From an uncultured virus (IMG/VR IMGVR_UViG_3300012920_000026) (taxonomy: Duplodnaviria; Heunggongvirae; Uroviricota; Caudoviricetes), in the IMG/VR virus record IMGVR_UViG_3300012920_000026, positions 57,099-77,098 of that record: a stretch of 20,000 nt of DNA; one strand, given 5' to 3'. The position numbers and the translations under genes are program-made. A model generated the notes under the pieces. The model was not told where the DNA came from. It searched no databases and saw only the letters and a program-made list of their open reading frames with translations. Of this stretch, positions 1 to 17,581 are shown piece by piece. The first letter of the stretch is position 1, and the number at the start of each line of letters is the position of its first letter.

Positions 1-1467
1 CCTTATTATATCTAATTTTGTTGAATCCTTTGTAATATTACCCATAATTGAAGTAGTGTCATCACTTGTATAATCACATTCATATTCTAAGATACTCTTA
101 AGACTCATACTTCCTAATTCATCTTTAACTTGTTTTTTTATAAATTGAGTAGCAGTTGATGTAACATCCTCAACAACCCTATTCATATCTGGATCACCAA
201 AAATAGATGTGAATGCGACACCAATAGGACCAACTAAAGGAAGTGATTTCCATCCACTAAAAATTGCTTGTGCCTCTGGGTCTAAAGTTACACCACCCCC
301 TAGAAGATATTCGGATATATATGGTGCATAACAATCCTCAAAATTAATTGGTTCTGTCATCGTCTTCAATTCTCTTAACGCCTCTTTTTCATCCACCGTA
401 CCATCCACCATTTGATTTCTTAATTCTTTATAATCATCCATCACACCACTTTTAATTCTTTTGAATTCGTCTGATGCATAAACATTAGCACAATAAATAA
501 TATCAGCAATTTCTTGTGCAGTTAGAGACACCAACAGTGTTCGAGTTAGTGCTCTCAGATTTGGATTTCTTACCATAACCGTTTCGTCACCAAATAACCA
601 TCTTTTTACATATCCTCTTTTAGGATAAAATTTAGCACCATCCTCAACAGTAAACCCTTTTTTCTTTAACTCTACTAAAAGTTCTCCATCAAGTTTGTCT
701 TTAGAAAATATCATATATTCTCCCGGTTGTTTCTTCATAGATAATACATAATAATCTCCTGCATTACCTGTTAAACTTTTAACATATTTTTTTAAACCTC
801 GTCTTTTTAGTCTTACATCATTAGCATAAGATTTTAATAGTTTTATCCTTAGTTTTTCATCACTAATACCATAAACATTTTGTAACACTTTATCTTTAAT
901 TATCTTACGTCTTGTAGCACCCATTTCACCACCTGGAAATAAATCCAATTGATCACCAAATTTAGTTTTAAATGCTTCAGGTGCATCGTCTAATAAATCA
1001 TCTATTTTTGCTATAGCGTTATCAACATCCAAGTTTTTATTTTTTGTTAAAAAATCAATTAATTCAGGATATAGAGTTTTAGGGTTTTCATTTTTTCCAA
1101 CAACTACCATCATATCTAAAAAGTCATCTAATGATTTTTCAACTGATTTATTCCACAGTCCGGGATAATATTTTAAAGAATTTCTTACCATTCCTTTAAA
1201 CTTTGTAACATTAGTTTCTTTTAAAGCATCTATTAAATCATCAAAACCCTGTCCATTTATTGCTGCACCAATTGCTTTAAGTTCTTTACTTGCTTTATTA
1301 TATACACTAGGATTAGACATAAGTTCTTTCATTGCCTTACCTATTGGAGATTCTATTAATAATTTCTTTTTTAATACAACAGATTCATCATAATTAACTT
1401 TATGTTCCATTCTTTCTAACATTAAGTTAAATTTTTTAACATCTAAAAATAAACTTTTTCTTTTCAT
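1..1467 (-). CDS. Large hypothetical protein, 3'-truncated by the window edge (>=489 aa); putative virion-associated protein
   Basis: Not in the ORF track because it has no stop in the window. ATG at 1467-1465 lies 7 nt after the upstream gene's stop; my translation (MKRKSLFLDVKKINLMLERMEHK...KKKLLIES...DSTKLDIIR) stays open to position 1. No family recognised. Confidence 0.8.
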   Translation of the reverse strand, partial: MKRKSLFLDVKKFNLMLERMEHKVNYDESVVLKKKLLIESPIGKAMKELMSNPSVYNKASKELKAIGAAINGQGFDDLIDALKETNVTKFKGMVRNSLKYYPGLWNKSVEKSLDDFLDMMVVVGKNENPKTLYPELIDFLTKNKNLDVDNAIAKIDDLLDDAPEAFKTKFGDQLDLFPGGEMGATRRKIIKDKVLQNVYGISDEKLRIKLLKSYANDVRLKRRGLKKYVKSLTGNAGDYYVLSMKKQPGEYMIFSKDKLDGELLVELKKKGFTVEDGAKFYPKRGYVKRWLFGDETVMVRNPNLRALTRTLLVSLTAQEIADIIYCANVYASDEFKRIKSGVMDDYKELRNQMVDGTVDEKEALRELKTMTEPINFEDCYAPYISEYLLGGGVTLDPEAQAIFSGWKSLPLVGPIGVAFTSIFGDPDMNRVVEDVTSTATQFIKKQVKDELGSMSLKSILEYECDYTSDDTTSIMGNITKDSTKLDIIR

Positions 1468-1474
1468 TTTTATA

Positions 1475-2341
1475 TTAATTTATTAATTGACTTATTATTT
1501 TAGATATGTCTCCACCTGAAAAAGTTGATCCGCCACCACCAAGTGCTTCATTACATAAACCTTGTTCGGTTTTAGCTATGGAATATGCCCTACTACCACC
1601 AATTATTGGATTATAACGTTTAGACATGTTATTTATATATTCTAATACTAAATCTCTTGTACCTTTCCTAATTTTTTCTCCACTATCATCATACATTGAC
1701 TCTAAAAATACTTGACCATATTTCATATTATCTACATCAGTTATTGGGGCTTGCCACCTAAACCATTTTATTTTTTGAGTAATACCAGCAAGTTTATTTC
1801 CTAAAACATGTTTTTCAATACATCCAGTACATGTTCTATCCCAATGGGTATTCATAGTTTCTTCAAATACTGTTTTATCACTTAAATCTATAGGTGTACC
1901 TAAAGTAGTATAAAATGTTACATATTTATTTGCCCAAATTGAGACATTACTAATTTTTATTACAGTTGTTGCGGCGACATTGTTAGTGTTTCTAGCCTTT
2001 AAAAAACAAACACCACCATCACTTTTTATCGACCAAGAAGTATTAGGTTTAATATCATCACTAAATTCAGACCATGCTTTAGATATAACGGGTTGTTGCA
2101 TACACAAAGATAATGCAGAATTTAGGTTAGGATTATCCGTTAACTTATTGTTAACAAAAAGTTGTGCTTCATCAAAATCAATTATGTCACCAGATGCAGA
2201 AAATTCGGTAGCATCTATTTGTCCATCACTATTAGTATCAGGATTAATAACTGATTGTTCATTTATGATGTTACCATAAAGTCTTTCTTCACTAAATAAA
2301 GACTTTATTCTCTTTATTTGTTTATTTAAATTATTTTCCAT
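1475..2341 (-). CDS. Hypothetical protein (288 aa) with RIKSLF..LYGN..INE leader and an EF-hand-like loop
   Basis: ORF track; N-terminus shared with the 5848-6285 protein; DTNSDGQIDATE at aa 35-46; TATTTAT motif 4 nt upstream. Confidence 0.8.
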   Translation of the reverse strand: MENNLNKQIKRIKSLFSEERLYGNIINEQSVINPDTNSDGQIDATEFSASGDIIDFDEAQLFVNNKLTDNPNLNSALSLCMQQPVISKAWSEFSDDIKPNTSWSIKSDGGVCFLKARNTNNVAATTVIKISNVSIWANKYVTFYTTLGTPIDLSDKTVFEETMNTHWDRTCTGCIEKHVLGNKLAGITQKIKWFRWQAPITDVDNMKYGQVFLESMYDDSGEKIRKGTRDLVLEYINNMSKRYNPIIGGSRAYSIAKTEQGLCNEALGGGGSTFSGGDISKIISQLIN

Positions 2342-2362: not shown

Positions 2363-5191
2363 TTAATAAATACTCATAATATCGTTATAGTCAACAAAAC
2401 TGTCTATTTTATCTTTTTCTTCATCCGTAACTTGATTCTCAATCTTTTTTGATTCTTTTTCAAGTAGTTCTAATAATTCATTATTTTTACTTTCTTTCTC
2501 AGCAATATTTAAAATATTATTATAACTATCGGTAATATATTTTTTAATTTCTTCTTTGGTGTTACCATTCTTCACCATATTTTTCTCTTGTCTATCAATA
2601 TCATCTATCTCCATTAATAATATTTCTAGTATGTCATTATCAGTAATAGATTTAACACCATTAAAAACAATATCTTTTATATTTTTATCTATATTAATAC
2701 CATATTTTATTAATAGTTTACTTATATAAGGGGCGGATATATTAATTGCATTAGCAAAATAATGGTATTCATCCATATCATCAAAAAGTTCTGCAATTTT
2801 TTTAGAGGATGCATCGTTTGGGTTCGCATCAATTGTTATACCTACCCATTTATCTACCGGTAAACCAGTTAATCTAGTTAAATCTCCCACTGCTTCAGCT
2901 AACCATTCTGCAATATCCTTACTTTTAGCTTGAAGTGTACCAAAAATAGTTGCTTGTATAAATGCTTGTTTAGTATTATATCTAATTGAGTATTTTCTTA
3001 AAACTTTATTAACGTTGTAATCTAATTTTTCAATATCTTTTGCAAATTTAGTTAGTTTATTAGGATCTTTCTTTAATTTACTTAATAATTTATCAAATGC
3101 TTCTTTTTCTACTTTATTTAATTTAGACAGTCCATTCGCTATTTTTGCGTAATCATCTACTATTGCTTTATCCATTTTAACAAATGCGTCTAAAACATCA
3201 TCTAGTTGTTGTAAATCAGCGGCAGACAAATCATCTAGTGTCTCCCTCATAACTTTCTTCCATTTTTCTGCAGCTTTTGCTTTAGTTAATCCTTTAAATT
3301 CAGCCCCACCTAATTCTTTTACTGATTTTCCTAATGCCTTTGCCCATTTTGCACTTGTGTAACCACCTTTTAAAGCGTTTTTACTATATTTTAATGCTTC
3401 TACGCCAGTAAATAACGCACCTAATAGTGTTAAAGATGCATCTATTTGCCAACCTTCTTTACCTTCTACCATATAAGATGTTGCGTTTGCTAAATCTATT
3501 GCCGCTGATAATGCCACATTTAATCCTGGAACCGGAATAAATAAAACCGCAATAGAAGCTATATCTGCAACACAGTGGTAATCACCAATACAATCTTCCG
3601 CCCAGTCAGTAAACTTTTCCCATCCACTTCTTATATCATTAGTTTTTACTCCATTTTGTACAATAGCAGACATATTATATTTAAATTCACCTACTTCTAG
3701 TGGTTTTTCAGGGTTATGTACACAACCACAAGACCCTAAATTCTTACCACCAGAGTAAAACCAAGTACCACCTAAATTATAATCGTCACATATTTCAAAA
3801 AATGTTTCTTCACCCCCATTGTTTAGTTCATCCATTGCACCATATAACCAATCGTGTAAAAAAGGTATTTCCATACCTATACCCTTACTTGCATCTCTAA
3901 CATTTTGTAATTCTGGTGATATGGCTCTTGATGAGGATATGGGTTTACTACAAAATTCTCTATATTTAGTGTCACTTTGACTTTGGAATCTTTTATTATG
4001 TTCTGTTGCTGCCTCAATTATATGTAACCACAAATCTAATATGTTTTCTGCATTACTTTTTTCATCCATAACTCTAGAGGTTAAGTCTTTCATCTTAAAC
4101 GGTGTAGGTTTTGGTGGCGGTGGTTTAATCAGACCTTTAATATCATACCAATAAGATGCACCATAAAGACTCCACGCCTTCTTAGTTCGTGGACCAAAAT
4201 TACCATAACCAGGAATTTTTTTATTTAATGGTTCACCGCTACCAGTCCATTTAGGATAATTTTTATCCAACCAATCTTGAAATTTTTTAATATTTTCAAT
4301 TTTACTAAGTTTTTGTGGTATTTTAATTTCACCTATTTTATCATTTAAATTTTGTATTGTTTGTACATGATTAATAATATTATTCTCTTCTACATCACTA
4401 TTGTATATATCATTACTATTATATTCGGTATAAAGTGGATTTAAATTTAAATAAGAATTATCAACTCTAGTGGTGGAAGCAACATTACTCAAATTATTTC
4501 TTTCCCAATTCAAATATTGTGCATTTGTTTGTGCATCTTTTACATCTTGAATTACACCCATAAGTTCGTCATACTTTTTACCGTATATTTTATACCACTC
4601 ATCCCATTCTTTGTTCCAGTTTCTAACTTTTTTATTGTACTCTTCTTTTAATTCTTTTTGTTTTTTTATAAATAAACTTTGTTTAAGTTGTGTACGAAAA
4701 TCATCTTCAAGTCGGTTTAGTAAGTTAAAATAATCTTTTATTAGTCCCTCAGTATAAAATAAGTTAGTATTTTCTATACCAACACCTTGAGTATCATATG
4801 GGCTATTAAACCATTTAGATATTGTATCTAAACCATAATTATCAATTATTTCTGCATTTAAGTTCAAAACTTTACCCGTCCAATCTCCTAATACTTTTAA
4901 TTTATTCCATTCACTAGCCACGCTATTATATGTCCGTATATTTTTATTTATTTTATCGTCATCCCAAAATTTAAATGCTAATTTTAAACGATCACTACTA
5001 CTTTTTATATCGTTTTTGGGATTTATACTAAAATTCATAGACTCCGGTGCCTTACTTTTAGAAATCCAAGTATTTGGTTCAGGACTATAAATAGCAGCAC
5101 CACTTATACCATCCACTTTTTGTTCAAAAATATTTAATATATCTTTATTAAAAAGTTGTTGGTATTGGACTTCTGAAATAATTATTTTCAT
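2363..5191 (-). CDS. Large hypothetical protein (942 aa) with peptidoglycan-binding-like motif and pre-toxin-like hydrophobic module
   Basis: ORF track; IKKFQDWL...GYGNFGPRTKKAW (aa ~299-340) resembles the PG_binding_1 pattern (LQ..L...DG.FGP.T..A); HCVADIASIAVLFIP...IDLANATSYMVEG (aa ~539-596). The ORF is secure, the domain calls tentative. Confidence 0.7.
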   Translation of the reverse strand: MKIIISEVQYQQLFNKDILNIFEQKVDGISGAAIYSPEPNTWISKSKAPESMNFSINPKNDIKSSSDRLKLAFKFWDDDKINKNIRTYNSVASEWNKLKVLGDWTGKVLNLNAEIIDNYGLDTISKWFNSPYDTQGVGIENTNLFYTEGLIKDYFNLLNRLEDDFRTQLKQSLFIKKQKELKEEYNKKVRNWNKEWDEWYKIYGKKYDELMGVIQDVKDAQTNAQYLNWERNNLSNVASTTRVDNSYLNLNPLYTEYNSNDIYNSDVEENNIINHVQTIQNLNDKIGEIKIPQKLSKIENIKKFQDWLDKNYPKWTGSGEPLNKKIPGYGNFGPRTKKAWSLYGASYWYDIKGLIKPPPPKPTPFKMKDLTSRVMDEKSNAENILDLWLHIIEAATEHNKRFQSQSDTKYREFCSKPISSSRAISPELQNVRDASKGIGMEIPFLHDWLYGAMDELNNGGEETFFEICDDYNLGGTWFYSGGKNLGSCGCVHNPEKPLEVGEFKYNMSAIVQNGVKTNDIRSGWEKFTDWAEDCIGDYHCVADIASIAVLFIPVPGLNVALSAAIDLANATSYMVEGKEGWQIDASLTLLGALFTGVEALKYSKNALKGGYTSAKWAKALGKSVKELGGAEFKGLTKAKAAEKWKKVMRETLDDLSAADLQQLDDVLDAFVKMDKAIVDDYAKIANGLSKLNKVEKEAFDKLLSKLKKDPNKLTKFAKDIEKLDYNVNKVLRKYSIRYNTKQAFIQATIFGTLQAKSKDIAEWLAEAVGDLTRLTGLPVDKWVGITIDANPNDASSKKIAELFDDMDEYHYFANAINISAPYISKLLIKYGINIDKNIKDIVFNGVKSITDNDILEILLMEIDDIDRQEKNMVKNGNTKEEIKKYITDSYNNILNIAEKESKNNELLELLEKESKKIENQVTDEEKDKIDSFVDYNDIMSIY

Positions 5192-5207
5192 ATTTATGGA
5201 TTTATAT

Positions 5208-5214
5208 ATAAATA
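5208..5214 (-). promoter_or_regulatory. TATTTAT motif (candidate late promoter)
   Basis: CTATTTATA 16 nt before ATG 5191, just after the tube terminator. Confidence 0.55.
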
Positions 5215-5226
5215 GTTAATTGCAAT

Positions 5227-5251
5227 AAAAAAGTCGCATAAAGCGACTTTT
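5227..5251 (-). terminator. Intrinsic terminator downstream of tail tube gene
   Basis: Perfect 9-bp stem AAAAGTCGC (5229-5237) / GCGACTTTT (5243-5251) with a 5-nt loop, ending in a T-run on the minus strand, about 24 nt after the tube stop codon. Confidence 0.85.
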
Positions 5252-5274
5252 AATATTATATATGTTAGTTTGAT

Positions 5275-5763
5275 TTAGAATACGTTAATCGCTCTATCAA
5301 ATCTTAAAGTACATGTAATGTCTGCTAAGTCAGAAGAACTATAATCTAAACCACCAAAGTCAGCGTCATTTAATTGAGTTCCTTCTAAAATCCATTTTTG
5401 TACCACTACACCTGTTGGATCTAACATTTCTAATTCTACATTCTTTTTGTATCCTGCTGCGTATCCTTGTCTACCAGTTACAGATTCAGAGTGTAATCTT
5501 ACCCATTCCATTAATGCTTGTGTAGCAGAAGGACCAATAGGGTCTCTAAAAGTTACAGAGATAGTTTCCCATCTAAATCTACCAATAACATAAGTTTCAG
5601 TGTTTAAAAATGGTATTGATACTTCATCACTAGTGTATTTAGGTCTACTTGCAGTAGAAATCCACCATTCTTGAATACCTAAATCATCAGGAAATCTAAG
5701 AATCCATCTATTCTTTCTTAATGGTTCATAAGGAACCGGCATTCTCATTAATAAATCTGCCAT
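5275..5763 (-). CDS. Tail tube protein (T4 gp19-like)
   Basis: 162 aa; YEPLRKNRWILRF, SRP, W.TISVTFRD, ALMEW, GYKKNVELEMLDPTG.VVQKW.L.G, LDYSS, TLRFD pattern typical of gp19-family tubes; near the sheath gene. Confidence 0.92.
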   Translation of the reverse strand: MADLLMRMPVPYEPLRKNRWILRFPDDLGIQEWWISTASRPKYTSDEVSIPFLNTETYVIGRFRWETISVTFRDPIGPSATQALMEWVRLHSESVTGRQGYAAGYKKNVELEMLDPTGVVVQKWILEGTQLNDADFGGLDYSSSDLADITCTLRFDRAINVF

Positions 5764-5801
5764 AATTTCTTTTTTTTATCGTTGTTTTTTATTCTTTATT
5801 A

Positions 5802-5808
5802 ATAAATA
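5802..5808 (-). promoter_or_regulatory. TATTTAT motif (candidate late promoter of tail tube)
   Basis: GATATTTATT 38 nt before ATG 5763, followed by an A-rich leader. Confidence 0.6.
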
Positions 5809-5847
5809 TCTAAAATTTAAAAAAATATAAATCTTTAATGTTTTTTA

Positions 5848-6285
5848 TTATCTTTCTAATTGTGAAGTAGGTTTATCTTGTGCCCTTTCGTCTTCTCTAT
5901 TAGAACTAACAGAAAAATCTAAATCTTCTATAATAATCTCATTAGTCTCAATAGTCATTTTATAAGTATCTATCGCATCTCCCACATGAAGAGTTAATCT
6001 ATCATATGCGTCATTACTCATTTTAGATTTATTTGATTTATCTATTATTTTTTCAACTTCTTTAATTGTTTCTTCTAATTCTTCGTTAAGTTCTTTTAAT
6101 GCACCAGATAATTCATAAGCATATTTAGTATAACTATATCCAGTACCCCTAAACATTCCACCAATACCTTTTAATGTAGATTTTAAACCTTCATTAATTG
6201 GTTCGGTAGGTGTATTACCATATAAATTATTATCATTAAATAATGATTTAATTCTTTCTAACTCTTCTCTAATGTTTTTTTTCAT
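5848..6285 (-). CDS. Hypothetical coiled-coil protein (145 aa) with RIKSLF..LYGN..INE leader
   Basis: ORF track; leader shared with 1475-2341; heptad-like LKELNEELEETIKEVEKII. Confidence 0.8.
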   Translation of the reverse strand: MKKNIREELERIKSLFNDNNLYGNTPTEPINEGLKSTLKGIGGMFRGTGYSYTKYAYELSGALKELNEELEETIKEVEKIIDKSNKSKMSNDAYDRLTLHVGDAIDTYKMTIETNEIIIEDLDFSVSSNREDERAQDKPTSQLER

Positions 6286-6295
6286 ATTTCATATT

Positions 6296-6763
6296 TTACC
6301 AACCAAAAATTCCATCAACATCTATTTCTGGATCAACAATATAATCAGATGATCTACCATCTTTAGAAGATAATGTTAAAAGACATTCGTGTTGAAAAGT
6401 ATCATCTATCTCATTTACTATTTTATCCAACCAATCTTTTATATCTAAATAATACGTATTATTATCACTTAATGTATTTTTTAGATGTGTAAAAATCATA
6501 TTTTTATATGCTTTTGCGGCATTTTTTTCATTATCATCCAAACCATTAAATCTAGAAAAGAAGTCAACATAATTAGTACCTGTGCTATCATTTGTTTTTT
6601 CTGGGTCATCAAAAATATTACTACTACCTTCCCACCATTTTTCTACTTCTTTACAGAATTTAATCGCTTCATCATAGTCTTCATCCGTAGATGTGTTTTC
6701 ATTTAATATTCTTTTATTTGCCTCTAGAATAAAATGTCTTTTCATTTTTTCAATTCTTCCCAT
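6296..6763 (-). CDS. Hypothetical acidic protein (155 aa) with basic leader ending ILNE
   Basis: ORF track; TATTTAT 16 nt upstream; fills the gap between co-oriented genes. Confidence 0.78.
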   Translation of the reverse strand: MGRIEKMKRHFILEANKRILNENTSTDEDYDEAIKFCKEVEKWWEGSSNIFDDPEKTNDSTGTNYVDFFSRFNGLDDNEKNAAKAYKNMIFTHLKNTLSDNNTYYLDIKDWLDKIVNEIDDTFQHECLLTLSSKDGRSSDYIVDPEIDVDGIFGW

Positions 6764-6779
6764 AACTTCTATTTTTTAT

Positions 6780-6786
6780 ATAAATA
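6780..6786 (-). promoter_or_regulatory. TATTTAT motif (candidate late promoter)
   Basis: AATATTTATA 16 nt before ATG 6763. Confidence 0.55.
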
Positions 6787-6806
6787 TTAAAAAAATAAAT
6801 AAAACA

Positions 6807-9776
6807 TCATTTTTTAATAATAATTCTTTTTTTCTTTGGGTTATTTGGGTCTGAAGTATCATAAACTAAAAATTTAACATCAGGATATATTTTTTTTAAT
6901 TTCTCCTCAATGTACTTTTCCGCACTTTCTATATTACCTAAATCATCATCACTAAAACCTATACTCATACCATTATATTCTGGATTATCTTTTATTTCTT
7001 TAACTGCACTAACTACTCTATCTACAAAAGTTTTTAATGCAATCATTTTACCGACTTCTGGGTTTGTTACACTTACATCAGTATCAAATTCTTCTACAAA
7101 CTCGTCAGAAGTCACAGGATAGTAGTCCTGTAAGTTTAGATATTGTTCTATAGATGTACCATGTAAGTTAGATAACATTTTTTCTTTTTGTTCTTCAGTG
7201 AAAAGAGTGTCAATTATCACTTTTATACCATCTTTAATTGCTTTAGGTGGGTTTCCTCTAGCAGTTATTATAGAGAAGTCGTTACCATATAATAATGCTT
7301 CTTTAAATTTATCAAAACTGGGTCCAAAAGATTTTTTTCTTAATGCTTCTTTTGTGTCTCTTATAAATGCGTCATAATCTCTGAAATCTTTAAACGCATA
7401 ATATAAGTCATCTTTTTCATATCTATAATCTTTACCAACTCTATTCCTAATTTCTCTAAATTCTTCAGTACCTACTAAAACAGGTATCCATCCATCACCT
7501 ACCTTTTTCTCTAAATAAATTTTAGTGGGCATAAATAAAATATTATCGTCCCAATCAAATGAATATGCTCTTTTTTTAAATTCCGTTAATAAACCTTTTT
7601 GGTGTTGATTAATTATTATTTTTTTAGGTTTCATAGATTCTTTTAAACCTGATGTTTTAAGATTTTCTAATTGTTTGTATATTTTGTTTACAACTTTTTT
7701 ACCCTTTTCTGGATCAGTATCAAATAATTTTCCATAATTTAACATTTCCCTGTAAAAACTATCACTTACATGATAATCCCTTAAAGTTCGTGCAGCATTA
7801 TAATCGTTATTAGTACCAAGTGATTTTAACCACTTTTTCATATCTTTAATAAAGGTACTAGTAATTTCACCTTGTTCAGGTTTAATTGATTTTTTAGCGT
7901 AGTCAATTAAATTACTAATAAAAGGCGATAAATTTGCTTCTATTTCCCATTGGTGTTCAGTATACCCGACATTATGTAAAATATCTCGTACTATTGATTG
8001 ATGGGACTTATCAGTACTATTTAAATAAATTTTAAATACCTTATCAACCTCTTCCTCACTTTTGTTTAATAAATTCTTATAAAATTGATTATAATCGGTA
8101 TACCGGCTATCAACTTCCTTTAATTCATCGAACATAGTTTTTAACCAAGGATTGTCTATTTTGGATCCTTTTTCTTTAAACCATAAATCATAATTTTCCC
8201 TAAACATAACCTTATCCTCCTCCGCCACAAATTTTTTAATAAAATCATCCTCATATTTACTTATCTTTGCAAATTTCTTCAGTGCTTCGGTATATATTGC
8301 TCGTTTAAAATGATTTAACTTAACGTGTTTAGGGTATTTACTCAACGTTTTTACCACATTTCCAAAATTCATATTTTTTATCTCTGTATCCGTTACATAA
8401 GAAGATGATAACTTATTACTCATTTTAGATGGTTGTTTGATATGTACTAATTCATGTTCTAACGAAAATAAAATATCGTCAAACGTCTTATGAGATCCAG
8501 GTCTCAAAATAACCCAATCAACTCCCTCATCATCCGTTAGACGTACTCCCGCAGCATTTTGAGTCTTTAAATCATATCTTTCTAATCCCTTACCCTTAAG
8601 TCTATGAGGCCCATAATCACTTACTGTTAATTTAACTTTTGTTTCTACACCATCAATATTCATTATAGTCTCAATAAAATTGGGATCGCCCGTCTCACCG
8701 TCATAACCCCAAACATCATCCCAACCCTTTTGTTTAAAAACATTTTTTATTTCTTCTATTTTTTCTTTTGCAATTTTAACTACCCCTATTTTTTTTATTG
8801 GTGGTTTTTTAACACTACCCTTCAGTAAAGAAAAAAACTCTTCTTTAGTTTTTTTACCTTCTAAAACTTCTTTTAAATATTTGCTATATAATTCTTCTGT
8901 ACCACCATTTTCTAAAAATATTTCTTTTTGTTTTTTTAAAAAACCAATTTTATCTGTGATAAGTTTTTTATGTGTTATTAAATCGTTTATAAATTTTTGA
9001 AGAAAAGTAAATTGTTGTTTAGTTAATTCTTGACCTTTACGTAGTTTCTCAATTATAGGTAACATTATTTTAGTAGAAACCTTTTCAAAACCGGGTATTT
9101 TATTAAGAAAAGGTAGAAATGCAAATATTATTGAGATTCCACCTGTTACTGGATCTCCTTCTTTAATATATAAAGCACCATTAGCTAACTCTATTACACC
9201 AGAAATAACGATACCGCCAGGAATGAATGCAAATACAATAGCAGCAATATCTAAAATTTCATGTCTATTTTCATATATTAACTCATGAGAATGACCAATA
9301 ATATCTTCAACAGAAGTATAATCACATAACGTCCCATATTCTTTTCCATCTATATAGTTTATGAAGTTATTAAGCATTGTCTTAGTATACTTTTTTTGAT
9401 TATCGTCCCAATTTTTAGTAGGTACTACCGTATCTCTATACTTTTGTAATCCCTTAACTATAAAATCATTATATTGCATAGTTTTTGCACCTGTAAAAGA
9501 AGGTCCACTAGGATTTCCTGCTAATTTAAATATTAAATCTCTAAACTCTTTTATCTCTTTATTAGGTAATGATTTATTATCACCTAATTGATTGTATTTT
9601 GGACAAAAATAACTAGAATGAAACCCCTTACCACCAAATTTCCACAAATATTTATCTTGTTTACCTACACCATCCCTATAATTACTGTTAGTAGATAACC
9701 AACCGTAATCCATATCTACTTTACGGGTAGGTCCCATTTCCCCATCAAAATTTTTAGATTGTTCATTTAAACTCAT
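6807..9776 (-). CDS. Multidomain protein (989 aa): pre-toxin-like hydrophobic module + HExxH zincin-like motif + C-terminal HAD-superfamily phosphatase domain
   Basis: HAD motifs I (FDWDDN), II (IITARG), III (K in PEVGK) and IV (GFSDDDLGN) in the last ~275 aa; LEHELVHIKQ at aa 439-448; HEILDIAAIVFAFIPG...ELANGALYIKEGD at aa ~172-224. Confidence 0.78.
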   Translation of the reverse strand: MSLNEQSKNFDGEMGPTRKVDMDYGWLSTNSNYRDGVGKQDKYLWKFGGKGFHSSYFCPKYNQLGDNKSLPNKEIKEFRDLIFKLAGNPSGPSFTGAKTMQYNDFIVKGLQKYRDTVVPTKNWDDNQKKYTKTMLNNFINYIDGKEYGTLCDYTSVEDIIGHSHELIYENRHEILDIAAIVFAFIPGGIVISGVIELANGALYIKEGDPVTGGISIIFAFLPFLNKIPGFEKVSTKIMLPIIEKLRKGQELTKQQFTFLQKFINDLITHKKLITDKIGFLKKQKEIFLENGGTEELYSKYLKEVLEGKKTKEEFFSLLKGSVKKPPIKKIGVVKIAKEKIEEIKNVFKQKGWDDVWGYDGETGDPNFIETIMNIDGVETKVKLTVSDYGPHRLKGKGLERYDLKTQNAAGVRLTDDEGVDWVILRPGSHKTFDDILFSLEHELVHIKQPSKMSNKLSSSYVTDTEIKNMNFGNVVKTLSKYPKHVKLNHFKRAIYTEALKKFAKISKYEDDFIKKFVAEEDKVMFRENYDLWFKEKGSKIDNPWLKTMFDELKEVDSRYTDYNQFYKNLLNKSEEEVDKVFKIYLNSTDKSHQSIVRDILHNVGYTEHQWEIEANLSPFISNLIDYAKKSIKPEQGEITSTFIKDMKKWLKSLGTNNDYNAARTLRDYHVSDSFYREMLNYGKLFDTDPEKGKKVVNKIYKQLENLKTSGLKESMKPKKIIINQHQKGLLTEFKKRAYSFDWDDNILFMPTKIYLEKKVGDGWIPVLVGTEEFREIRNRVGKDYRYEKDDLYYAFKDFRDYDAFIRDTKEALRKKSFGPSFDKFKEALLYGNDFSIITARGNPPKAIKDGIKVIIDTLFTEEQKEKMLSNLHGTSIEQYLNLQDYYPVTSDEFVEEFDTDVSVTNPEVGKMIALKTFVDRVVSAVKEIKDNPEYNGMSIGFSDDDLGNIESAEKYIEEKLKKIYPDVKFLVYDTSDPNNPKKKRIIIKK

Positions 9777-9798: not shown

Positions 9799-9824
9799 AA
9801 AAAAACCCACATATAGTGGGTTTT
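9799..9824 (-). terminator. Intrinsic terminator downstream of tail sheath gene
   Basis: Perfect 9-bp stem AAAACCCAC (9802-9810) / GTGGGTTTT (9816-9824) with a 5-nt loop and a 7-T run on the minus strand, about 21 nt after the sheath stop. Confidence 0.85.
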
Positions 9825-9845: not shown

Positions 9846-12671
9846 TTAGATATCATCAAAAGATGCTCCAGTATTAGTAATATTAAATTCAATACTAATG
9901 TATTCTAAAGATCTGGTTGGTTTAATGAATATTCTACCGTTTAATTCATTTCTATCAATAGATTCTGGTGTATCATCTAATACAACTCTAAAGTCAGTTA
10001 AACCTCTCTCTTTTCTAATATTATCCAATATTGGATTAACTAATGAAAGGAATTGATTTCTTACAACATCATCATTCTGTTCGAATAATAATCTAATAGA
10101 TACTGCCGAAATAAGTTTTCTAGCTTGTAATAACAATCTTCTAACATTAATTCTGTTAAGTGCCGTATCTTTAGATTGTAAGGTTTTATTACCCCAAATA
10201 CAAACACCTACATCTGAGAATGTTGCCATTGGATTAATTCTTCCTTCATATAAATCATCTCTTTGATCTAAAGTTAATTTTGTTCTCGCTTTAATTGCAT
10301 TTGTAGTACCTCTGTTTAAACCAGCTGCTGCGAACCAAGGGAACGCCACGTTATCCGTTAATGCAATGTTTCTAACAACTTCTAATGTTGGTGGTAACCA
10401 AATGTATTGATTATTTTCTGTATCATTCATCTGTAACCAAGGGAAGTAAGTTGCAGAATAGTTACTATCTATTCCTGAATCATCTAATATTCCTGTTGCT
10501 TCATCTGGTGTTAAAACAGTTTCTCCATCGCTACTAGTATCTGGTGTAGTAATTACATACAATGAATCTGCTCTATCATTTTCAACCATATCAACCGCTG
10601 CATCAATTAAGGAAGGTTGATCTCTTAAATCTAATCCTGGTGTTGCAAAAACATTTATATTTACTGCTTCTGGATTATTATAAGTATATATTCCTTCTAA
10701 ATATGCAAAGTAATCTGAAGTTATACCATCATCTCCTTCAGAAGTAGTATAAGTTGTAAACGTTCCATTAAGTAAACCTTCATTACCCTTACTACCAGTT
10801 TTGGTATATGAGTCAGTATTTGTTCTGTCTAAACGATACACATCCCAACCATCAAAACCACCGTATGGTGCGAAAGTAAATTTCCTAGCAGTTACTTTTT
10901 CATATGGCCCACTTTGTAAAGATGCTTCAGTAGTAAATGCTGATATACCTACTTGTAATGATGGAAAATAACTATCATTACCTGCTGATATTTCTGCCCC
11001 TTTTGCGTTTACGTCTAAGTGAAAACCATCCGATTTACCAGTATACGCTACTTTAGTTACTGCGTCTAATCCTTTGTAATCGAAGAAATCTTGATCTACA
11101 CCAATAGTCGTATTAAGACCTAAATAGTATTTTCTTATTTGTGAGTTATTCAATGAAGGGTATTTTGTACCATACTCTATTTGTGGTGGTAATGCCGTAG
11201 TATCACCGATATAGTCTCTGACTTGTACTCCCTCAAAACCTGCAGGTACACCATTAGTTGGGTAATCGGTTGCCATATCTACCATAATATAATTACTTCT
11301 TAATGGGAATTCACCATCTGACGTACCAATTTTTCTACCAATAAATCCGTTATCTGTAGGGTCTAAAGAAAGTTTAGAAAATTTCTCTAAAACACTTAGA
11401 TTGGCGTCATTATCATTATATCTTCTTACTATTAAATCAAATGTTTTTTCATCTGGTTTAATGTTGATAATAGAAAATTTAATATCTCTGTTAGCCGCAT
11501 TACCATCAGATATTGTAATAAATCTAAATAATCTCTGAAGTTTATTACCCCTTAATTCAGATAATACGTATGGGGAAGCTGCAGACTGATATTTTTCTTC
11601 ATAATTACTTAAATTATAAGTAGAATCTGCACTTATTCTAACAAAATCAATGTTTAAACCTCTTACTTTACCAGCAGTATTTAAATCATCTAAACTGTTA
11701 ATAAACAATTCTTCTACAAAAAGTTCTGTTTCTTTATCTTGTGAACTAACACCAAAAACATTAGGTAAATAGTTCTTTTTAGTCTTATCTAATGACACAT
11801 TATAGTCAAAGTCAACACCACTACTTGTTGTACCATTTATTGTAAAACTACCAAAAGGATTAGTTACAATTGCCGAAGTATTTGACATACTTACATCTGT
11901 TATACCTGATACTGTGTAATCTAATATTTGATCTCCACCATAATTACCTCTAGATCTTAAAGTGGCAACCACACTACCATCAATATTATAAGATGATGCA
12001 GTATAAGTTATTACCGTACCTGAAGTAACACCTGTTACAAAACCTGGTGTAGAACCAGATGTTGCGATAACTTCCATAGAGAAAGTAGCACCAGAAAAGT
12101 CACTACCCACTTCTATATATTTAGGTGAAGTTATTGATATAGTATCACCAGTTGCACTTAAACCTATTGCAGAAAAACTATTACTAATTTCCCCTTGATC
12201 ATATAATTCTTGTAAAAGAGGATCACTAAATGTCATTGTAACTGGTGTTCCACCTGTACTCGCACTATAAGTTAATAATGTAGGATAAGAAGTAGTACCT
12301 ATTACTTCTTCTGTTGATGGATCAAACTCTGCATCCAATGTAATACACCAAGCATTACCTGCTTTATATCCTGATAATCCTAATACTCTACTAACATAAA
12401 GTTGATTTGTTTGTGTTAAAAACGATCTAGCTATATAGTTAAGTTCATATTTTGGATATCCATTACCTTTATATTTTTCAGGGTTTAGGTTACCAAAATA
12501 TGATGTGAATTCATCATAATTAGAAATGAATACTGGTTCAAATGCAGGACCTTTAGGTGTTTCCCCTAGTAAACCTAATGTAGTTACCCCCACTTGTCTT
12601 GTTACGAATGTTAAATCCTTTTCTGATGTAAAAACACCTGGACTAACGAAAATTCTATTTGTTGAAGCCAT
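9846..12671 (-). CDS. Contractile tail sheath protein (T4 gp18-like)
   Basis: N-terminal SPGVFTSEKD...G.TPKGPAFEP; C-terminal YFPW, PWFAAAGLNRG, RDDLYEGRINP, WGNKTL, LNRINVRRLL, LFEQND, IKPTRSLEYI are hallmark sheath motifs. Confidence 0.96.
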   Translation of the reverse strand: MASTNRIFVSPGVFTSEKDLTFVTRQVGVTTLGLLGETPKGPAFEPVFISNYDEFTSYFGNLNPEKYKGNGYPKYELNYIARSFLTQTNQLYVSRVLGLSGYKAGNAWCITLDAEFDPSTEEVIGTTSYPTLLTYSASTGGTPVTMTFSDPLLQELYDQGEISNSFSAIGLSATGDTISITSPKYIEVGSDFSGATFSMEVIATSGSTPGFVTGVTSGTVITYTASSYNIDGSVVATLRSRGNYGGDQILDYTVSGITDVSMSNTSAIVTNPFGSFTINGTTSSGVDFDYNVSLDKTKKNYLPNVFGVSSQDKETELFVEELFINSLDDLNTAGKVRGLNIDFVRISADSTYNLSNYEEKYQSAASPYVLSELRGNKLQRLFRFITISDGNAANRDIKFSIINIKPDEKTFDLIVRRYNDNDANLSVLEKFSKLSLDPTDNGFIGRKIGTSDGEFPLRSNYIMVDMATDYPTNGVPAGFEGVQVRDYIGDTTALPPQIEYGTKYPSLNNSQIRKYYLGLNTTIGVDQDFFDYKGLDAVTKVAYTGKSDGFHLDVNAKGAEISAGNDSYFPSLQVGISAFTTEASLQSGPYEKVTARKFTFAPYGGFDGWDVYRLDRTNTDSYTKTGSKGNEGLLNGTFTTYTTSEGDDGITSDYFAYLEGIYTYNNPEAVNINVFATPGLDLRDQPSLIDAAVDMVENDRADSLYVITTPDTSSDGETVLTPDEATGILDDSGIDSNYSATYFPWLQMNDTENNQYIWLPPTLEVVRNIALTDNVAFPWFAAAGLNRGTTNAIKARTKLTLDQRDDLYEGRINPMATFSDVGVCIWGNKTLQSKDTALNRINVRRLLLQARKLISAVSIRLLFEQNDDVVRNQFLSLVNPILDNIRKERGLTDFRVVLDDTPESIDRNELNGRIFIKPTRSLEYISIEFNITNTGASFDDI

Positions 12672-14859: not shown

Positions 14860-16677
14860 ATGATTATAATTAGAAATATGTTAGATATAAAAGACATTAA
14901 AGGATTGAAAATTGAAGAACTATTAGTTACATATAATGGTAAGAATCCCTATATTAATTATATAAAGAAAAAATATCAAACCGAAAAATCATATTTTTTA
15001 ACTAATAGTCAAACAAAATATATTACTAATTATTTTAATTACATACCTAAAAATATTAATAAAATTGTAGAAATCACTGAATATTTTTCAAATCAATTAA
15101 AAGAAGAGTATAAATTGACTACACCAATTAATAAAATATTAGTAGAAACTATATTAGCAGAAAGTGATAAAGCAATACACGCAATATGTAAATTTTATAA
15201 AAATCAAAAAGAAGTTAAATTAATATGGATACCTAAAACTCAATTAATTGAAGATATTCACTATGAGGAAGTAGAAGTAGAAGTAGACTTTGAAAAGTAC
15301 ATAGATTTAGATAAAAGGGGTTGGAGAGCATTTAAACATCAAGAAGAAGGTATAGAATTTTTATTAAAAAATAAAAAATGTATTTTGGCGGATGATATGG
15401 GTTTAGGTAAAACATATCAATCTATAGTTGCTGCATTAGAATGTAATGCAGAAAGAGTTTTAATTGTTTGTCCAGCATCTTTAAAAATAAATTGGATGAG
15501 AGAAGTACAAAACTTTTGTGAAGATGTTTCTATAATAAAGGGGAAACATTGGAATCCAGATAGATTTACTATTATAAATTATGATATATTAAAAAATTTT
15601 CATACTATAGAAGAAAGAGGTAAAAAATATGAAGAGTGGGAATTAAGAAGAGAAATAGTTGAATTTAATCCAGATTTAATAATATTAGATGAAGCACACT
15701 TTGTAAAAAATCACAAAAGTATAAGGGGTAAAATTTTAAAAGACATCTCAAAAAGATTTTCTCCTGAAAGATGTTGGTTGTTAACTGGTACACCCATCGC
15801 TAATAGACCAATGGACTATTATAATCTTTTGTCCATAATAGAATGTGGTGTTGCAAATAATTGGGTACATTACGCTAGAACTTATTGTGAAGGAGTAAGA
15901 TTTAAAAAAGGTGGTAGGTTTGTTTGGGTAACTAAAGGTGCATCTAATTTAGAAGAATTAGCACAAAAAACTAAAAGAACTATCTTAAGACGTAAAAAAG
16001 AAGAAGTATTGGATTTACCAGATAAACTTATAACACCAATTTATTTAGAATTACAAAATGTAGAAGGTTATAAAAATGTGTGGGAAGAATATTTGGCACA
16101 ACGTAAAGTAGATGGTAAAAAAGGTAATCCCGCAAGAGATTTAGTAGAAGCTACATTGTTAAGAACTTTTATAGCTATGGAAACTGTTCCATATACTATA
16201 GAAAAAGTAGAAGAAGCATTAGAATTAAATAAAAAAACTATTATATTTTGTAACTTCAATGACGAAATGGATGCGTTTATTAGGTATTTTGGAGATAAGT
16301 GTGTTTGTATAAGGGGAGGAATGTCAGATAAACAAAAACAATTGGCGGTTGATAGATTTCAAGAAGATGATAATTGTAAAGTTTTCGTAGGACAAATAAA
16401 GGCTGCCGGTGTAGGATTAACCTTAACTGCTGCAGAGATAGTAATTATGAATTCATTAGACTGGGTACCGGGAAATCATGAACAAGCGGAAGATAGAGCA
16501 TATAGGATAGGTCAAAATAAAACAGTTAATATATATTATATGTTAATAGATGAAACAATAGACACATTAGTGTGGGATATTTTAAATGAAAAAAAGAAAA
16601 TCATCGGAACTATTATGGGTGAAGAAAATATTATAGAAGAATTTATTAAAAAGATTGAAAATGATGTGGAAAAATAA
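14860..16677 (+). CDS. SNF2-family (SMARCAL1/HARP-like) SF2 helicase/ATPase; start may be ATG 14878
   Basis: Motifs LADDMGLGKT (I), VCPASLKINW (Ia), ILDEAH (II), LTGTPIANRP (III), AAGVGLTLT (V), QAEDRAYRIGQ (VI). Confidence 0.93.
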   Translation: MIIIRNMLDIKDIKGLKIEELLVTYNGKNPYINYIKKKYQTEKSYFLTNSQTKYITNYFNYIPKNINKIVEITEYFSNQLKEEYKLTTPINKILVETILAESDKAIHAICKFYKNQKEVKLIWIPKTQLIEDIHYEEVEVEVDFEKYIDLDKRGWRAFKHQEEGIEFLLKNKKCILADDMGLGKTYQSIVAALECNAERVLIVCPASLKINWMREVQNFCEDVSIIKGKHWNPDRFTIINYDILKNFHTIEERGKKYEEWELRREIVEFNPDLIILDEAHFVKNHKSIRGKILKDISKRFSPERCWLLTGTPIANRPMDYYNLLSIIECGVANNWVHYARTYCEGVRFKKGGRFVWVTKGASNLEELAQKTKRTILRRKKEEVLDLPDKLITPIYLELQNVEGYKNVWEEYLAQRKVDGKKGNPARDLVEATLLRTFIAMETVPYTIEKVEEALELNKKTIIFCNFNDEMDAFIRYFGDKCVCIRGGMSDKQKQLAVDRFQEDDNCKVFVGQIKAAGVGLTLTAAEIVIMNSLDWVPGNHEQAEDRAYRIGQNKTVNIYYMLIDETIDTLVWDILNEKKKIIGTIMGEENIIEEFIKKIENDVEK

Positions 16678-17581
16678 AATGGTATGGGAAAATATTAATA
16701 TATTTTCTAAAGAAGAAGCAAAAAAAATAGAGAATTTATTCGAAACTAATTTACATCAATTCGGACTAACTGTAAATCATGGAAGTTTTAGACTTTCAGT
16801 TTATGAATCTACATTAAATGATACATTTCCTGAAGTACATGAACTTATAGTAAATAAGATTAAAAAAATACCAAAATTAAAAGATTATACCGTAACAAGA
16901 TCTGCCGGTCTTAGATATACTAAAGATGCACCTTCTATGCCCCATCATTACGATGGAGATGATTATACCATTTTAATTTTTATTAATGATAATTATGAAG
17001 GTAGTGGTACTGTATTTCCGTTGTTGAAAAAAACTGCACATGCTTCAGAATTTGGTGTGGGAAACGCTCTTTTATTTTCAGGTAGAAAAATAAAGAGTTG
17101 GCATGGAGCATTACCTATAAAAAATGGGGTTAGATACACTATTAATGTAAGACTTAACAAAAATAAAACTTTCATAAAAAAAATAAAAAGTTTTTTTAAA
17201 CTATTGATTTTATTCGCTATTGAACCTATAATAAACAAATATGAACGTCATTATAATAAAGAAATAAAAGATACAGAAAAAATAATTATGAAAACAATAC
17301 CAATAGTATTTAGTATGCAAGGTTGTCCACATTGTGATAACCTAAAAAAACAACTTAAAGAATCTAATATAGATTTTAAAGAAATAGATACAGACGCAAA
17401 AGAAAATGAAGTTTTATATGAATCCTTTTCAAAAAAAGTTGGTAGTGATTTTTTACCTGCAGTAATTATAGGAAAAAAAGCATTTTTACCTGATAAATCA
17501 TTTAAAACTATTGATGATGGGGTAAATATGATTAAGGAGTACCTTCAGGAGCTTTCTGATCGTGAGAACCATTTAGATTAA
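16661..17581 (+). CDS. 2OG-Fe(II) oxygenase domain fused to C-terminal glutaredoxin-like (CPHC) domain
   Basis: HYD...WHG...RYT facial triad plus 2OG-binding Arg, and YEGSGTVF; C-terminal VFSMQGCPHCDNLK...F.EID...LPAVII. The ORF track starts at TTG 16655; ATG 16661 or 16679 is more likely. In-frame ATG at 17288 opens the glutaredoxin part. Confidence 0.8.
   Translation: MMWKNKMVWENINIFSKEEAKKIENLFETNLHQFGLTVNHGSFRLSVYESTLNDTFPEVHELIVNKIKKIPKLKDYTVTRSAGLRYTKDAPSMPHHYDGDDYTILIFINDNYEGSGTVFPLLKKTAHASEFGVGNALLFSGRKIKSWHGALPIKNGVRYTINVRLNKNKTFIKKIKSFFKLLILFAIEPIINKYERHYNKEIKDTEKIIMKTIPIVFSMQGCPHCDNLKKQLKESNIDFKEIDTDAKENEVLYESFSKKVGSDFLPAVIIGKKAFLPDKSFKTIDDGVNMIKEYLQELSDRENHLD

Follow-up and report, generated by a model that had tools for sequence, protein, structure and literature searches.

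Leader-tagged proteins with a shared hydrophobic module among the tail genes of an uncultured myovirus clade: probable virion-packed, host-injected proteins rather than relatives of pre-toxin domains

Here, we describe two large proteins of 942 and 989 amino acids (aa) encoded among the tail genes of an uncultured virus of the class Caudoviricetes (IMG/VR record IMGVR_UViG_3300012920_000026). The window analyzed, 20,000 nucleotides (nt) at positions 57,099 to 77,098 of that record, is the terminal 20 kb of a viral contig of 77,098 bases with a guanine-plus-cytosine (GC) content of 29%. CheckV puts the completeness of the contig at 23% and that of related records of 126 to 198 kb at 38 to 60%, from which we estimate a genome size of approximately 330 kb. 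On the minus strand, the genes follow the order sheath (941 aa), 989-aa protein, 155-aa protein, 145-aa protein, tube (162 aa), 942-aa protein, 288-aa protein, and 837-aa protein (Table 1), and beyond the window come a hub-like 261-aa protein (phrog_150), proteins of 402, 626, and 1,154 aa, and a wedge subunit. The nearest cultured sheath shows only 33% identity. An original prediction, made from the letters of this DNA, had described the two large open reading frames (ORFs) flanking the tube gene correctly and had read them as a polymorphic-toxin system delivered by the virion. We find instead that these large, leader-tagged proteins with a membrane hairpin are probably packed into the virion and injected into the host, and that they are not relatives of pre-toxin domains.

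The hydrophobic motif on which that prediction was built is confirmed. It occupies residues 539 to 596 of the 942-aa protein (nt 3404 to 3577) and residues 172 to 224 of the 989-aa protein (nt 9105 to 9263), exactly where it had been placed. BLASTP between the two proteins returns a single significant high-scoring segment pair, located at the motif (22 of 72 positions identical, E = 2e-5); the claimed lack of similarity elsewhere also stands, because every other segment pair has an E of at least 0.86. When a hidden Markov model (HMM) was built from six sequences of the 942 family, the 989-aa protein being excluded, that protein emerged as the top nonself match among the ORFs of the contig (E = 0.0014). 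The model scores the real 989 segment at 13.8 bits, against a maximum of 5.7 bits in 2,000 shuffles of its 120 residues. Transmembrane (TM)-grade hydrophobicity is confined to the module in both proteins (Kyte-Doolittle mean over 19 residues; values in Table 1), and the 77-kb contig holds these two module copies only.

Table 1. Features of the window encoding the two module proteins and their neighbors (positions are those of the 20,000-nt window; KD, Kyte-Doolittle 19-residue mean; AF2, AlphaFold2; pLDDT, predicted local distance difference test)
Feature	Position	Strand	Basis
942-aa module protein, copy in the tube-hub slot	2363..5191	-	ORF; collinear with five homologues (31-84% identity)
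Type-A leader, 942 residues 1-23, with I-F-E at its end and Q next	5123..5191	-	Leader consensus; h-x-E-[QN] at residue 23
Small Cys-bearing alpha/beta domain, 942 residues 464-535	3587..3802	-	AF2 pLDDT >90 there; 34-sequence alignment
Hydrophobic module of the 942-aa protein, residues 536-612; helices 538-551, 557-576, 581-608	3356..3586	-	BLASTP, HMM, KD 2.08, AF2
Conserved helical C-terminal region, 942 residues 613-942	2366..3355	-	Many invariant family columns; C-flank cluster
989-aa chimeric protein	6807..9776	-	ORF; homologues share only residues about 340-989
Vestigial leader M-S-L-N-E then Q	9762..9776	-	L-N-E-Q at residue 5
N-terminal part like the 467-aa module protein of a relative (P0041 / L021:8278-9681)	9297..9701	-	40% over 131 aa, E 2e-23; 31% over 322 aa, E 5e-32
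Short-variant module of the 989-aa protein, residues 165-225	9102..9284	-	BLASTP, HMM, KD 2.47
HExxH region, 989 residues about 341-717	7626..8756	-	H441, E442, H445, Q448 invariant
Internal leader-like junction, 989 residues 718-732, ending L-T-E then F	7581..7625	-	Matches N-terminal leader of free-standing 272-aa homologues
HAD-like C-terminal domain, 989 residues 733-989	6810..7580	-	92-97% identical to free-standing 272-aa proteins in L007, L010
Tail sheath	9846..12671	-	PF17482 E 6e-8; phrog_23 E 3.8e-61
Tail tube protein	5275..5763	-	phrog_4542 E 4.5e-24
155-aa small protein with leader	6296..6763	-	L-N-E-N at residue 22; four tandem paralogues in L018
145-aa protein, type-B leader	5848..6285	-	N-terminus 46% identical to 288-aa protein over 28 aa
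288-aa protein, type-B leader	1475..2341	-	I-N-E-Q at residue 28
N-terminal 489 residues of the 837-aa protein, leader-like N-terminus	1..1467	-	Relatives 775-867 aa in equivalent position

The 942-aa protein is a standard copy of its family, with a conserved helical C-terminal region, and its five homologues are collinear with it through to the C terminus. In the small domain preceding the module, C468 and C490 are invariant and C534 and C540 nearly so across 34 aligned sequences. AF2 modeling of residues 455 to 625 from these 34 sequences (pLDDT 79.5) yields this alpha/beta domain with confidence, followed by the three module helices at a pLDDT of about 80 to 87. A peptidoglycan-binding reading of residues about 300 to 345 was rejected, as Pfam gives no match there in six family members (E <= 5) and the best segment pair to a true PG_binding_1 neighbor has an E of 0.25.

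The 989-aa protein is a fusion that joins a module protein, a region with HExxH, and a HAD-like part, the last of which is a free-standing protein in close relatives. Its first ~340 residues match the 467-aa module protein of a relative, and residues about 340 to 989 resemble proteins without the module. The HExxH motif is invariant in 9 aligned sequences, and among the 110 module proteins compared, this is the sole member with such a motif and the one whose C-terminal flank is unlike all others. In the HAD-like part, 11 sequences share invariant columns at D-x-D (D-W-D), T, K, and D-D-D; HAD motifs follow the order DxD, T/S, K, DD. The Atlas places this part in free-standing viral clusters of 67 to 271 members, with PF11019 on 10% of one neighboring cluster. 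Searches of Pfam and of PDB sequences gave no match for the HExxH region, and for the HAD-like part no Pfam match at E <= 1 and no significant PDB sequence match, so that the labels "zincin-like" and "HAD-like" denote motifs and not membership of a known family. A full-length AF2 model of the 989-aa protein from 9 sequences reached a pLDDT of 37 and was not used. A longer N-terminal leader is impossible in the 989 frame because a stop codon and a terminator-like hairpin lie just upstream. This hairpin, between the sheath stop and the 989 start (window positions 9799 to 9824, minus strand), combines a GC stem of 5 bp with a loop of 5 nt and a run of T, and is absent from our pattern-scan list.

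In the gap between sheath and tube (L007:5737-6555; L104:9007-9828; L111:4914-5621), the HAD-like protein is conserved across the clade; it has a type-A leader (see below), a different short N terminus (L104), or no leader (L111), and it is fused to larger proteins only in the phage of the window and a few others. Outside the window, a 5'-open frame of 524 aa (G000:C1:1-1575, plus strand) carries a type-A leader-like stretch in midchain (residue 274) after L-D-E and may be another joined, polyprotein-like gene.

Using a profile built from six module sequences (A3), we searched 1.84 billion representatives and recovered 108 proteins at E <= 1e-3, 24 at E <= 1e-10, and 4 at E <= 1e-30. Three repeat proteins matched in many short stretches and were set aside, and one match is bacterial (P0099, discussed below). 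The remaining proteins range from 142 to 1,332 aa and carry the module anywhere along the chain; they are nearly all phage-like and Pfam-dark. Sixteen diverse copies, the bacterial one included, share invariant H, P, G, S, Y, and G columns plus an E-G-D loop. Two variants can be distinguished, a long one (942 type) with conserved cysteines upstream and a short one (989 type) without these. Pfam finds no domain accounting for any of 106 module proteins, PHROGs contains no family for the 942- or 989-aa protein, and PDB sequences yielded no significant match, whether searched with the two proteins or with profiles A2 and A7. At the level of structure, the 171-residue model has no match in PDB or BFVD at E <= 0.001, and a VIA wide fold search returned generic three-helix matches only (Z 7 to 8). 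Literature searches on PT-TG and polymorphic toxins in phage virions and on capsid targeting in uncultured or jumbo phages brought up no paper describing the module or the leaders. The 942- and 989-aa proteins belong to an undescribed, Pfam-dark family from uncultured myoviruses that form an abundant clade and have T4-type heads and ~330-kb genomes. Two L061 proteins with an "IPGVG" stretch were ruled out as members and belong to a different family.

Nearly all module proteins, and many unrelated neighbors, begin with one of a few conserved peptides. We observe at least four or five such leader types, 15 to 30 residues long, and the same types occur on unrelated proteins, for example, the HAD-like protein. 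A strict type-A leader is present in 49 of 103 module proteins, and its conservation collapses immediately past E-Q. The motif h-x-E-[QN], where h is hydrophobic, falls within the first 45 residues of 81 of 95 Met-starting module proteins, versus 7 to 9% of later 45-residue windows, and leader patterns are nearly confined to N termini. Seven type-B leaders vary by synonymous codons, including Ser codons of both the TCN and AGY sets, which indicates that selection acts on the peptide. The same two features are characteristic of T4-type internal proteins: a short conserved leader common to unrelated proteins, and a leader ending in a hydrophobic-x-Glu prohead-protease motif.

Tandem arrays of three to five small paralogues in the gap between sheath and tube (L054:6443-8104; L018:136-2494; L012:1700-3204) combine the same leader of 15 to 25 residues with divergent bodies. 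In one of these relatives, a 562-aa protein with a type-B leader (L018:6515-8203) has PG_binding_1 (E = 2.9e-11) directly past the leader, a hint at cell-wall action by some of the leader-tagged proteins.

The tail-gene setting was examined using the tube protein as an unbiased anchor, with 80 loci taken from at least 598 related tube stretches in viral contigs; the tube-hub interval is fully covered in 49 of them. Module genes occupy two hypervariable slots, between sheath and tube and between tube and hub, and these slots carry changing sets of leader-tagged genes, often tandem paralogues, with a gene order around the module gene that flips between relatives. The tube-hub slot holds a module gene in 10 of the 49 loci, one of them with two copies. 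All ten have tubes 88 to 100% identical to that of the window, and each of the ten relatives within that range carries the gene there. The other 39 (tube 68.5 to 84.6% identical) lack a module gene in the slot, and in 23 of the 49 the slot is empty, the hub beginning no more than 161 nt past the tube. Records of five slot-lacking relatives (fragments of 77 to 163 kb) hold no module anywhere, whereas five of five positive controls hold one copy each.

These data bear on the view that the 942 family acts in the tail lumen, as a tape measure or its partner lying inside the tube like T4 gp29, its hydrophobic segment forming a membrane channel and its leader having nothing to do with the capsid. 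T4 gp29, proposed to form an inner-membrane channel, combines a coiled coil, a TM segment at residues 207 to 246, and a helical bundle at 273 to 518 (bioRxiv 10.64898/2026.03.06.709160); the module protein resembles it in that a long helical region comes after the hydrophobic hairpin and in that its gene is near those of tube and baseplate hub, here between the two. A protein of 614 to 710 aa that is kept in every relative examined, and which is the better candidate for the tape measure, lacks a hydrophobic segment, so the hairpin might come from a separate protein. However, the module proteins in the slot vary from 439 to 1,322 aa although the tubes beside them are 88 to 100% identical, most relatives do without one, no PHROG or Pfam tape-measure family and no fold matches, and the same leaders stand on genes beside the head module. 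Because the slot is often empty and its contents and lengths vary, module genes appear to be accessory and cargo-like and not core tail parts, which argues against a tape-measure role. We regard a place in the tail lumen as unlikely.

A possible link to the head comes from relatives of the phage. In T4, the capsid-targeting sequence is the only element common to the internal proteins (PMC3012670); gp21 removes T4 propeptides of 10 to 20 residues, and the cuts in Alt fall at ITE-6 and LTE-619 (PMC5694885). Peptidase_S77 scores above the cutoff in two of five related records (90 to 91 bits), and in one of these (L028), whose sheath and tube are 99 to 100% identical to those of the window, the protease gene lies in a portal-protease-scaffold-capsid block. 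The N-terminal 60 residues of the L028 capsid protein contain V-K-E-N, L-Y-E-N, and L-T-E-A, and three leader-tagged genes, one encoding a very basic protein, lie just upstream of terminase and portal. The basic protein (L028:382-1683 [G003]; 433 aa) is extremely rich in Lys and Arg as well as in Cys, carries a type-A leader, and looks like a DNA-associated internal head protein.

From these observations, we infer that the 942/989 family consists of capsid-targeted, protease-trimmed ejection proteins with a membrane-inserting hairpin, a reading that we hold to be evenly poised between right and wrong. The leader would be a capsid-targeting propeptide that docks the protein into the assembling head, after which the T4-type prohead protease of the phage (Peptidase_S77) would remove it by cutting at the terminal h-x-E-[Q/N], as happens with the internal proteins of T4 and with Alt. 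Together with the DNA, the mature proteins would then exit the virion, after which the hairpin may insert into the host membrane, either aiding DNA passage or anchoring the attached domains. In this function, the hairpin would be akin to the TM segment of T4 gp29 (bioRxiv 10.64898/2026.03.06.709160). The L-T-E junction within the 989-aa protein could let the protease separate the fused parts.

Several points weigh against this proposal. The AF2 model of the module is a soluble-looking three-helix bundle with no specific fold match. The shorter pattern [LI]-x-E is common in these Lys/Glu-rich proteins, occurring in 19 to 34% of internal 45-residue windows, and the 989-aa protein keeps merely a five-residue remnant of a leader. 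The 77-kb contig of the window and the phage's 146-kb contig, both of them fragments, show no protease gene. A tblastn search of the 942-aa protein against 50,697 phage records gave no match, and hence no cultured relative. Finally, the 942 and 989 genes sit among tail genes and not head genes; this location is not decisive, since genes of the T4 Alt family adjoin baseplate genes and yet their products are packaged in the head (PMC5512222).

The hairpin would also suit late-expressed membrane proteins that stay outside the virion, serving, for example, in superinfection exclusion, lysis control, or assembly at the host membrane. Such a role agrees with the presence of a single TM-grade hairpin, with the accessory and hypervariable nature of the genes, and with the PG_binding_1 domain of the leader-B neighbor in L018. 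It leaves unexplained why many soluble-looking proteins share leaders with a protease motif, why sizes reach 1,322 aa, and why no N terminus resembles a signal peptide, and we consider it improbable, more so than a place in the tail lumen.

The original prediction went further than virion delivery. It took the module for a PT-TG-like pre-toxin region, said to be widespread in bacterial toxins, with variable C-terminal toxins behind it and immunity or chaperone genes beside it. Its picture of a large modular family combining leader, variable part, and hydrophobic module among tail genes has stood up, and delivery by the virion remains plausible; the kinship with PT-TG, the variable C-terminal payload, and the role given to the neighbors have not.

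Membership in PT-TG is largely refuted. PF14449 has no match at E <= 10 on the two 91-aa segments, none at E <= 5 on six 942-family members, and none on the whole contig in six frames, on the 106 module proteins, or on the P0099 genome, whereas a Bacillus subtilis control gives a match. True PT-TG occurs in 5 of 401 Actinomycetota genomes (a tally that includes one unpublished genome left unused), and three true PT-TG sequences show the motif of PMC13483458. Against these three, hhalign aligns only 6 columns of the module profile with a probability of 0.75%, the PT-TG alignment being shallow, and the module profile has no match in two genomes holding true PT-TG. The conserved 15-residue loop with Gly, Asp, Arg, and the TG motif, described for PT-TG in PMC13483458, is missing, as the module has E-G-D and no conserved Arg. 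What likeness there is consists of a short hydrophobic segment punctuated by Gly and Pro in large modular proteins, with a hydrophobic-Pro-x-x-Gly turn common to both motifs, and of a language-model (Atlas) feature search among named clusters in which two PT-TG clusters come out on top as the nearest named family. Their scores (0.87 and 0.86, with 92 of 256 features shared) lie under 0.9, a range that provides leads only, and the list also includes further toxin-delivery families, among them clusters related to LXG, DUF637, and Tle1.

The architecture is the reverse of that of polymorphic toxins, with the C-terminal side conserved and the N-terminal side variable. In the set of 110 module proteins, one cluster takes in 78 of 105 C-terminal flanks, including that of the 942-aa protein, whereas the 82 N-terminal flanks form 20 clusters, 16 of which are linked to the main C-terminal cluster; clusters were formed by single linkage, so over-merging is possible. 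In PT-TG proteins, a trafficking domain comes first and a variable C-terminal toxin and then an immunity gene follow, but here the module precedes a conserved domain and no toxin domain is found in any of the 106 module proteins. As for the 155-, 145-, and 288-aa neighbors, proposed as immunity or chaperone proteins, a separate leader type is common to the 288- and 145-aa proteins, paralogues of the 155-aa protein carry leaders, and the order of these genes around the module gene flips, the 288-aa protein being a constant neighbor whose side varies.

The bacterial match, P0099 (L025:877-3021; E = 2.5e-4), is a 715-aa protein from Intrasporangiaceae with the module at residues 416 to 473, preceded by a long N-terminal part and followed by 240 C-terminal residues, which counts in favor of the pre-toxin reading. 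It has no Pfam domain, and the search around its module found one relative. It is the one actinobacterial protein among the 108 matches, and in a search limited to Actinomycetota the module profile matched 2 of 301 genomes, one of them that of P0099 itself, which lends no support to the notion that the hairpin is widespread in bacterial toxins. Taken together, we judge the polymorphic-toxin system with adjacent immunity genes to be highly improbable. A related idea is that the hairpin is a portable membrane-translocation device, common by descent or convergence to phage-ejected proteins and to bacterial pre-toxin regions of the P0099 type and perhaps PT-TG. The device would carry fused parts, for example, variable N-terminal domains or the putative HExxH and HAD-like enzymes, to or across the inner membrane of the target cell. 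We give this idea, which builds on the Atlas leads, only a slim chance; if true, this clade of giant phages would run a capsid-loaded, protease-armed polymorphic effector-delivery system.

MuF polymorphic toxins of temperate phages offer a further comparison, as modular proteins associated with the virion whose delivery to the host is presumed (PMC12226406). They have a conserved N-terminal MuF domain, a variable C-terminal toxin, and immunity proteins, whereas no MuF domain was found here and the variable part is N-terminal.

Under the reading of capsid-targeted ejection proteins, the closest known systems are the T4 internal proteins IPI to IPIII and Alt, which likewise combine a short conserved leader on unrelated, fast-evolving proteins with a hydrophobic-x-Glu end and hypervariable loci (PMC3012670, PMC5694885), and the S77 protease is present in the clade. 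The differences lie in the greater number and length of leader types, in proteins of up to 1,322 aa, in the tail-gene location, and in the hydrophobic module, which the passages on T4 internal proteins in the sources cited do not mention. SPN3US gp47, an ejection protein, is packaged in the head, loses an N-terminal propeptide to a gp21-related protease, and has a transmembrane domain in its mature part (PMC5694885). Compared by description, SPN3US differs in that its propeptides mostly exceed 100 residues and its cleavage motif is A/S-x-E (PMC5694885). Polyvalent proteins of phages and conjugative elements, for which packaging, injection, and processing are predicted (Iyer et al. 2017, PMC5512222), resemble the 989-aa protein, which also strings disparate modules together, HExxH included, and is encoded among virion genes. 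Pfam and PDB sequence searches tie its HExxH and HAD-like parts to no known family, however, and its junction looks like a prohead-protease site and not a self-cleavage site.

If this reading holds, the T4 capsid-loading system of an address label plus a protease has been enlarged in an abundant clade into a big modular repertoire that includes large membrane-module proteins. The combination of leader and h-x-E-[Q/N] would then provide a sequence rule for predicting injected proteins from metagenomes, and the module would be defined as a new conserved element whose part in penetrating the envelope can be tested. The analysis also corrects a link to bacterial polymorphic toxins that was appealing but lacked support.

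Functions for the neighboring genes are scarce. Pfam and PHROGs assign nearly none to 36 leader-bearing neighbors and 33 other contig proteins, the tube gene matches PF06841 below the cutoff (E = 0.018), and tblastn of the 837- and 626-aa proteins matched none of the phage records. There is no enrichment of the T4 late-promoter word TATAAATA (10 seen versus 8.5 expected), and a scan for promoter and terminator patterns was uninformative. Within the window, a 308-aa protein (16655 to 17581, plus strand) combines an N-terminal phrog_2297 match, a weak 2OG-Fe(II) oxygenase signal, with a C-terminal glutaredoxin (PF00462, E = 3e-8). Outside the window, a 131-aa protein (G000:C1:2464-2859, minus strand) matching cREC_REC, the cyclic-phosphate-processing receiver (PF20274, E = 1.8e-22), adjoins a 314-aa protein with a type-A leader. 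A 1,903-aa protein encoded downstream of the wedge subunit (L003:11807-17518; G000:C1:42206-47917) is endolysin-like at residues 1605 to 1734 (phrog_181, E = 1.6e-5) and is possibly a cell-puncturing or hub protein.

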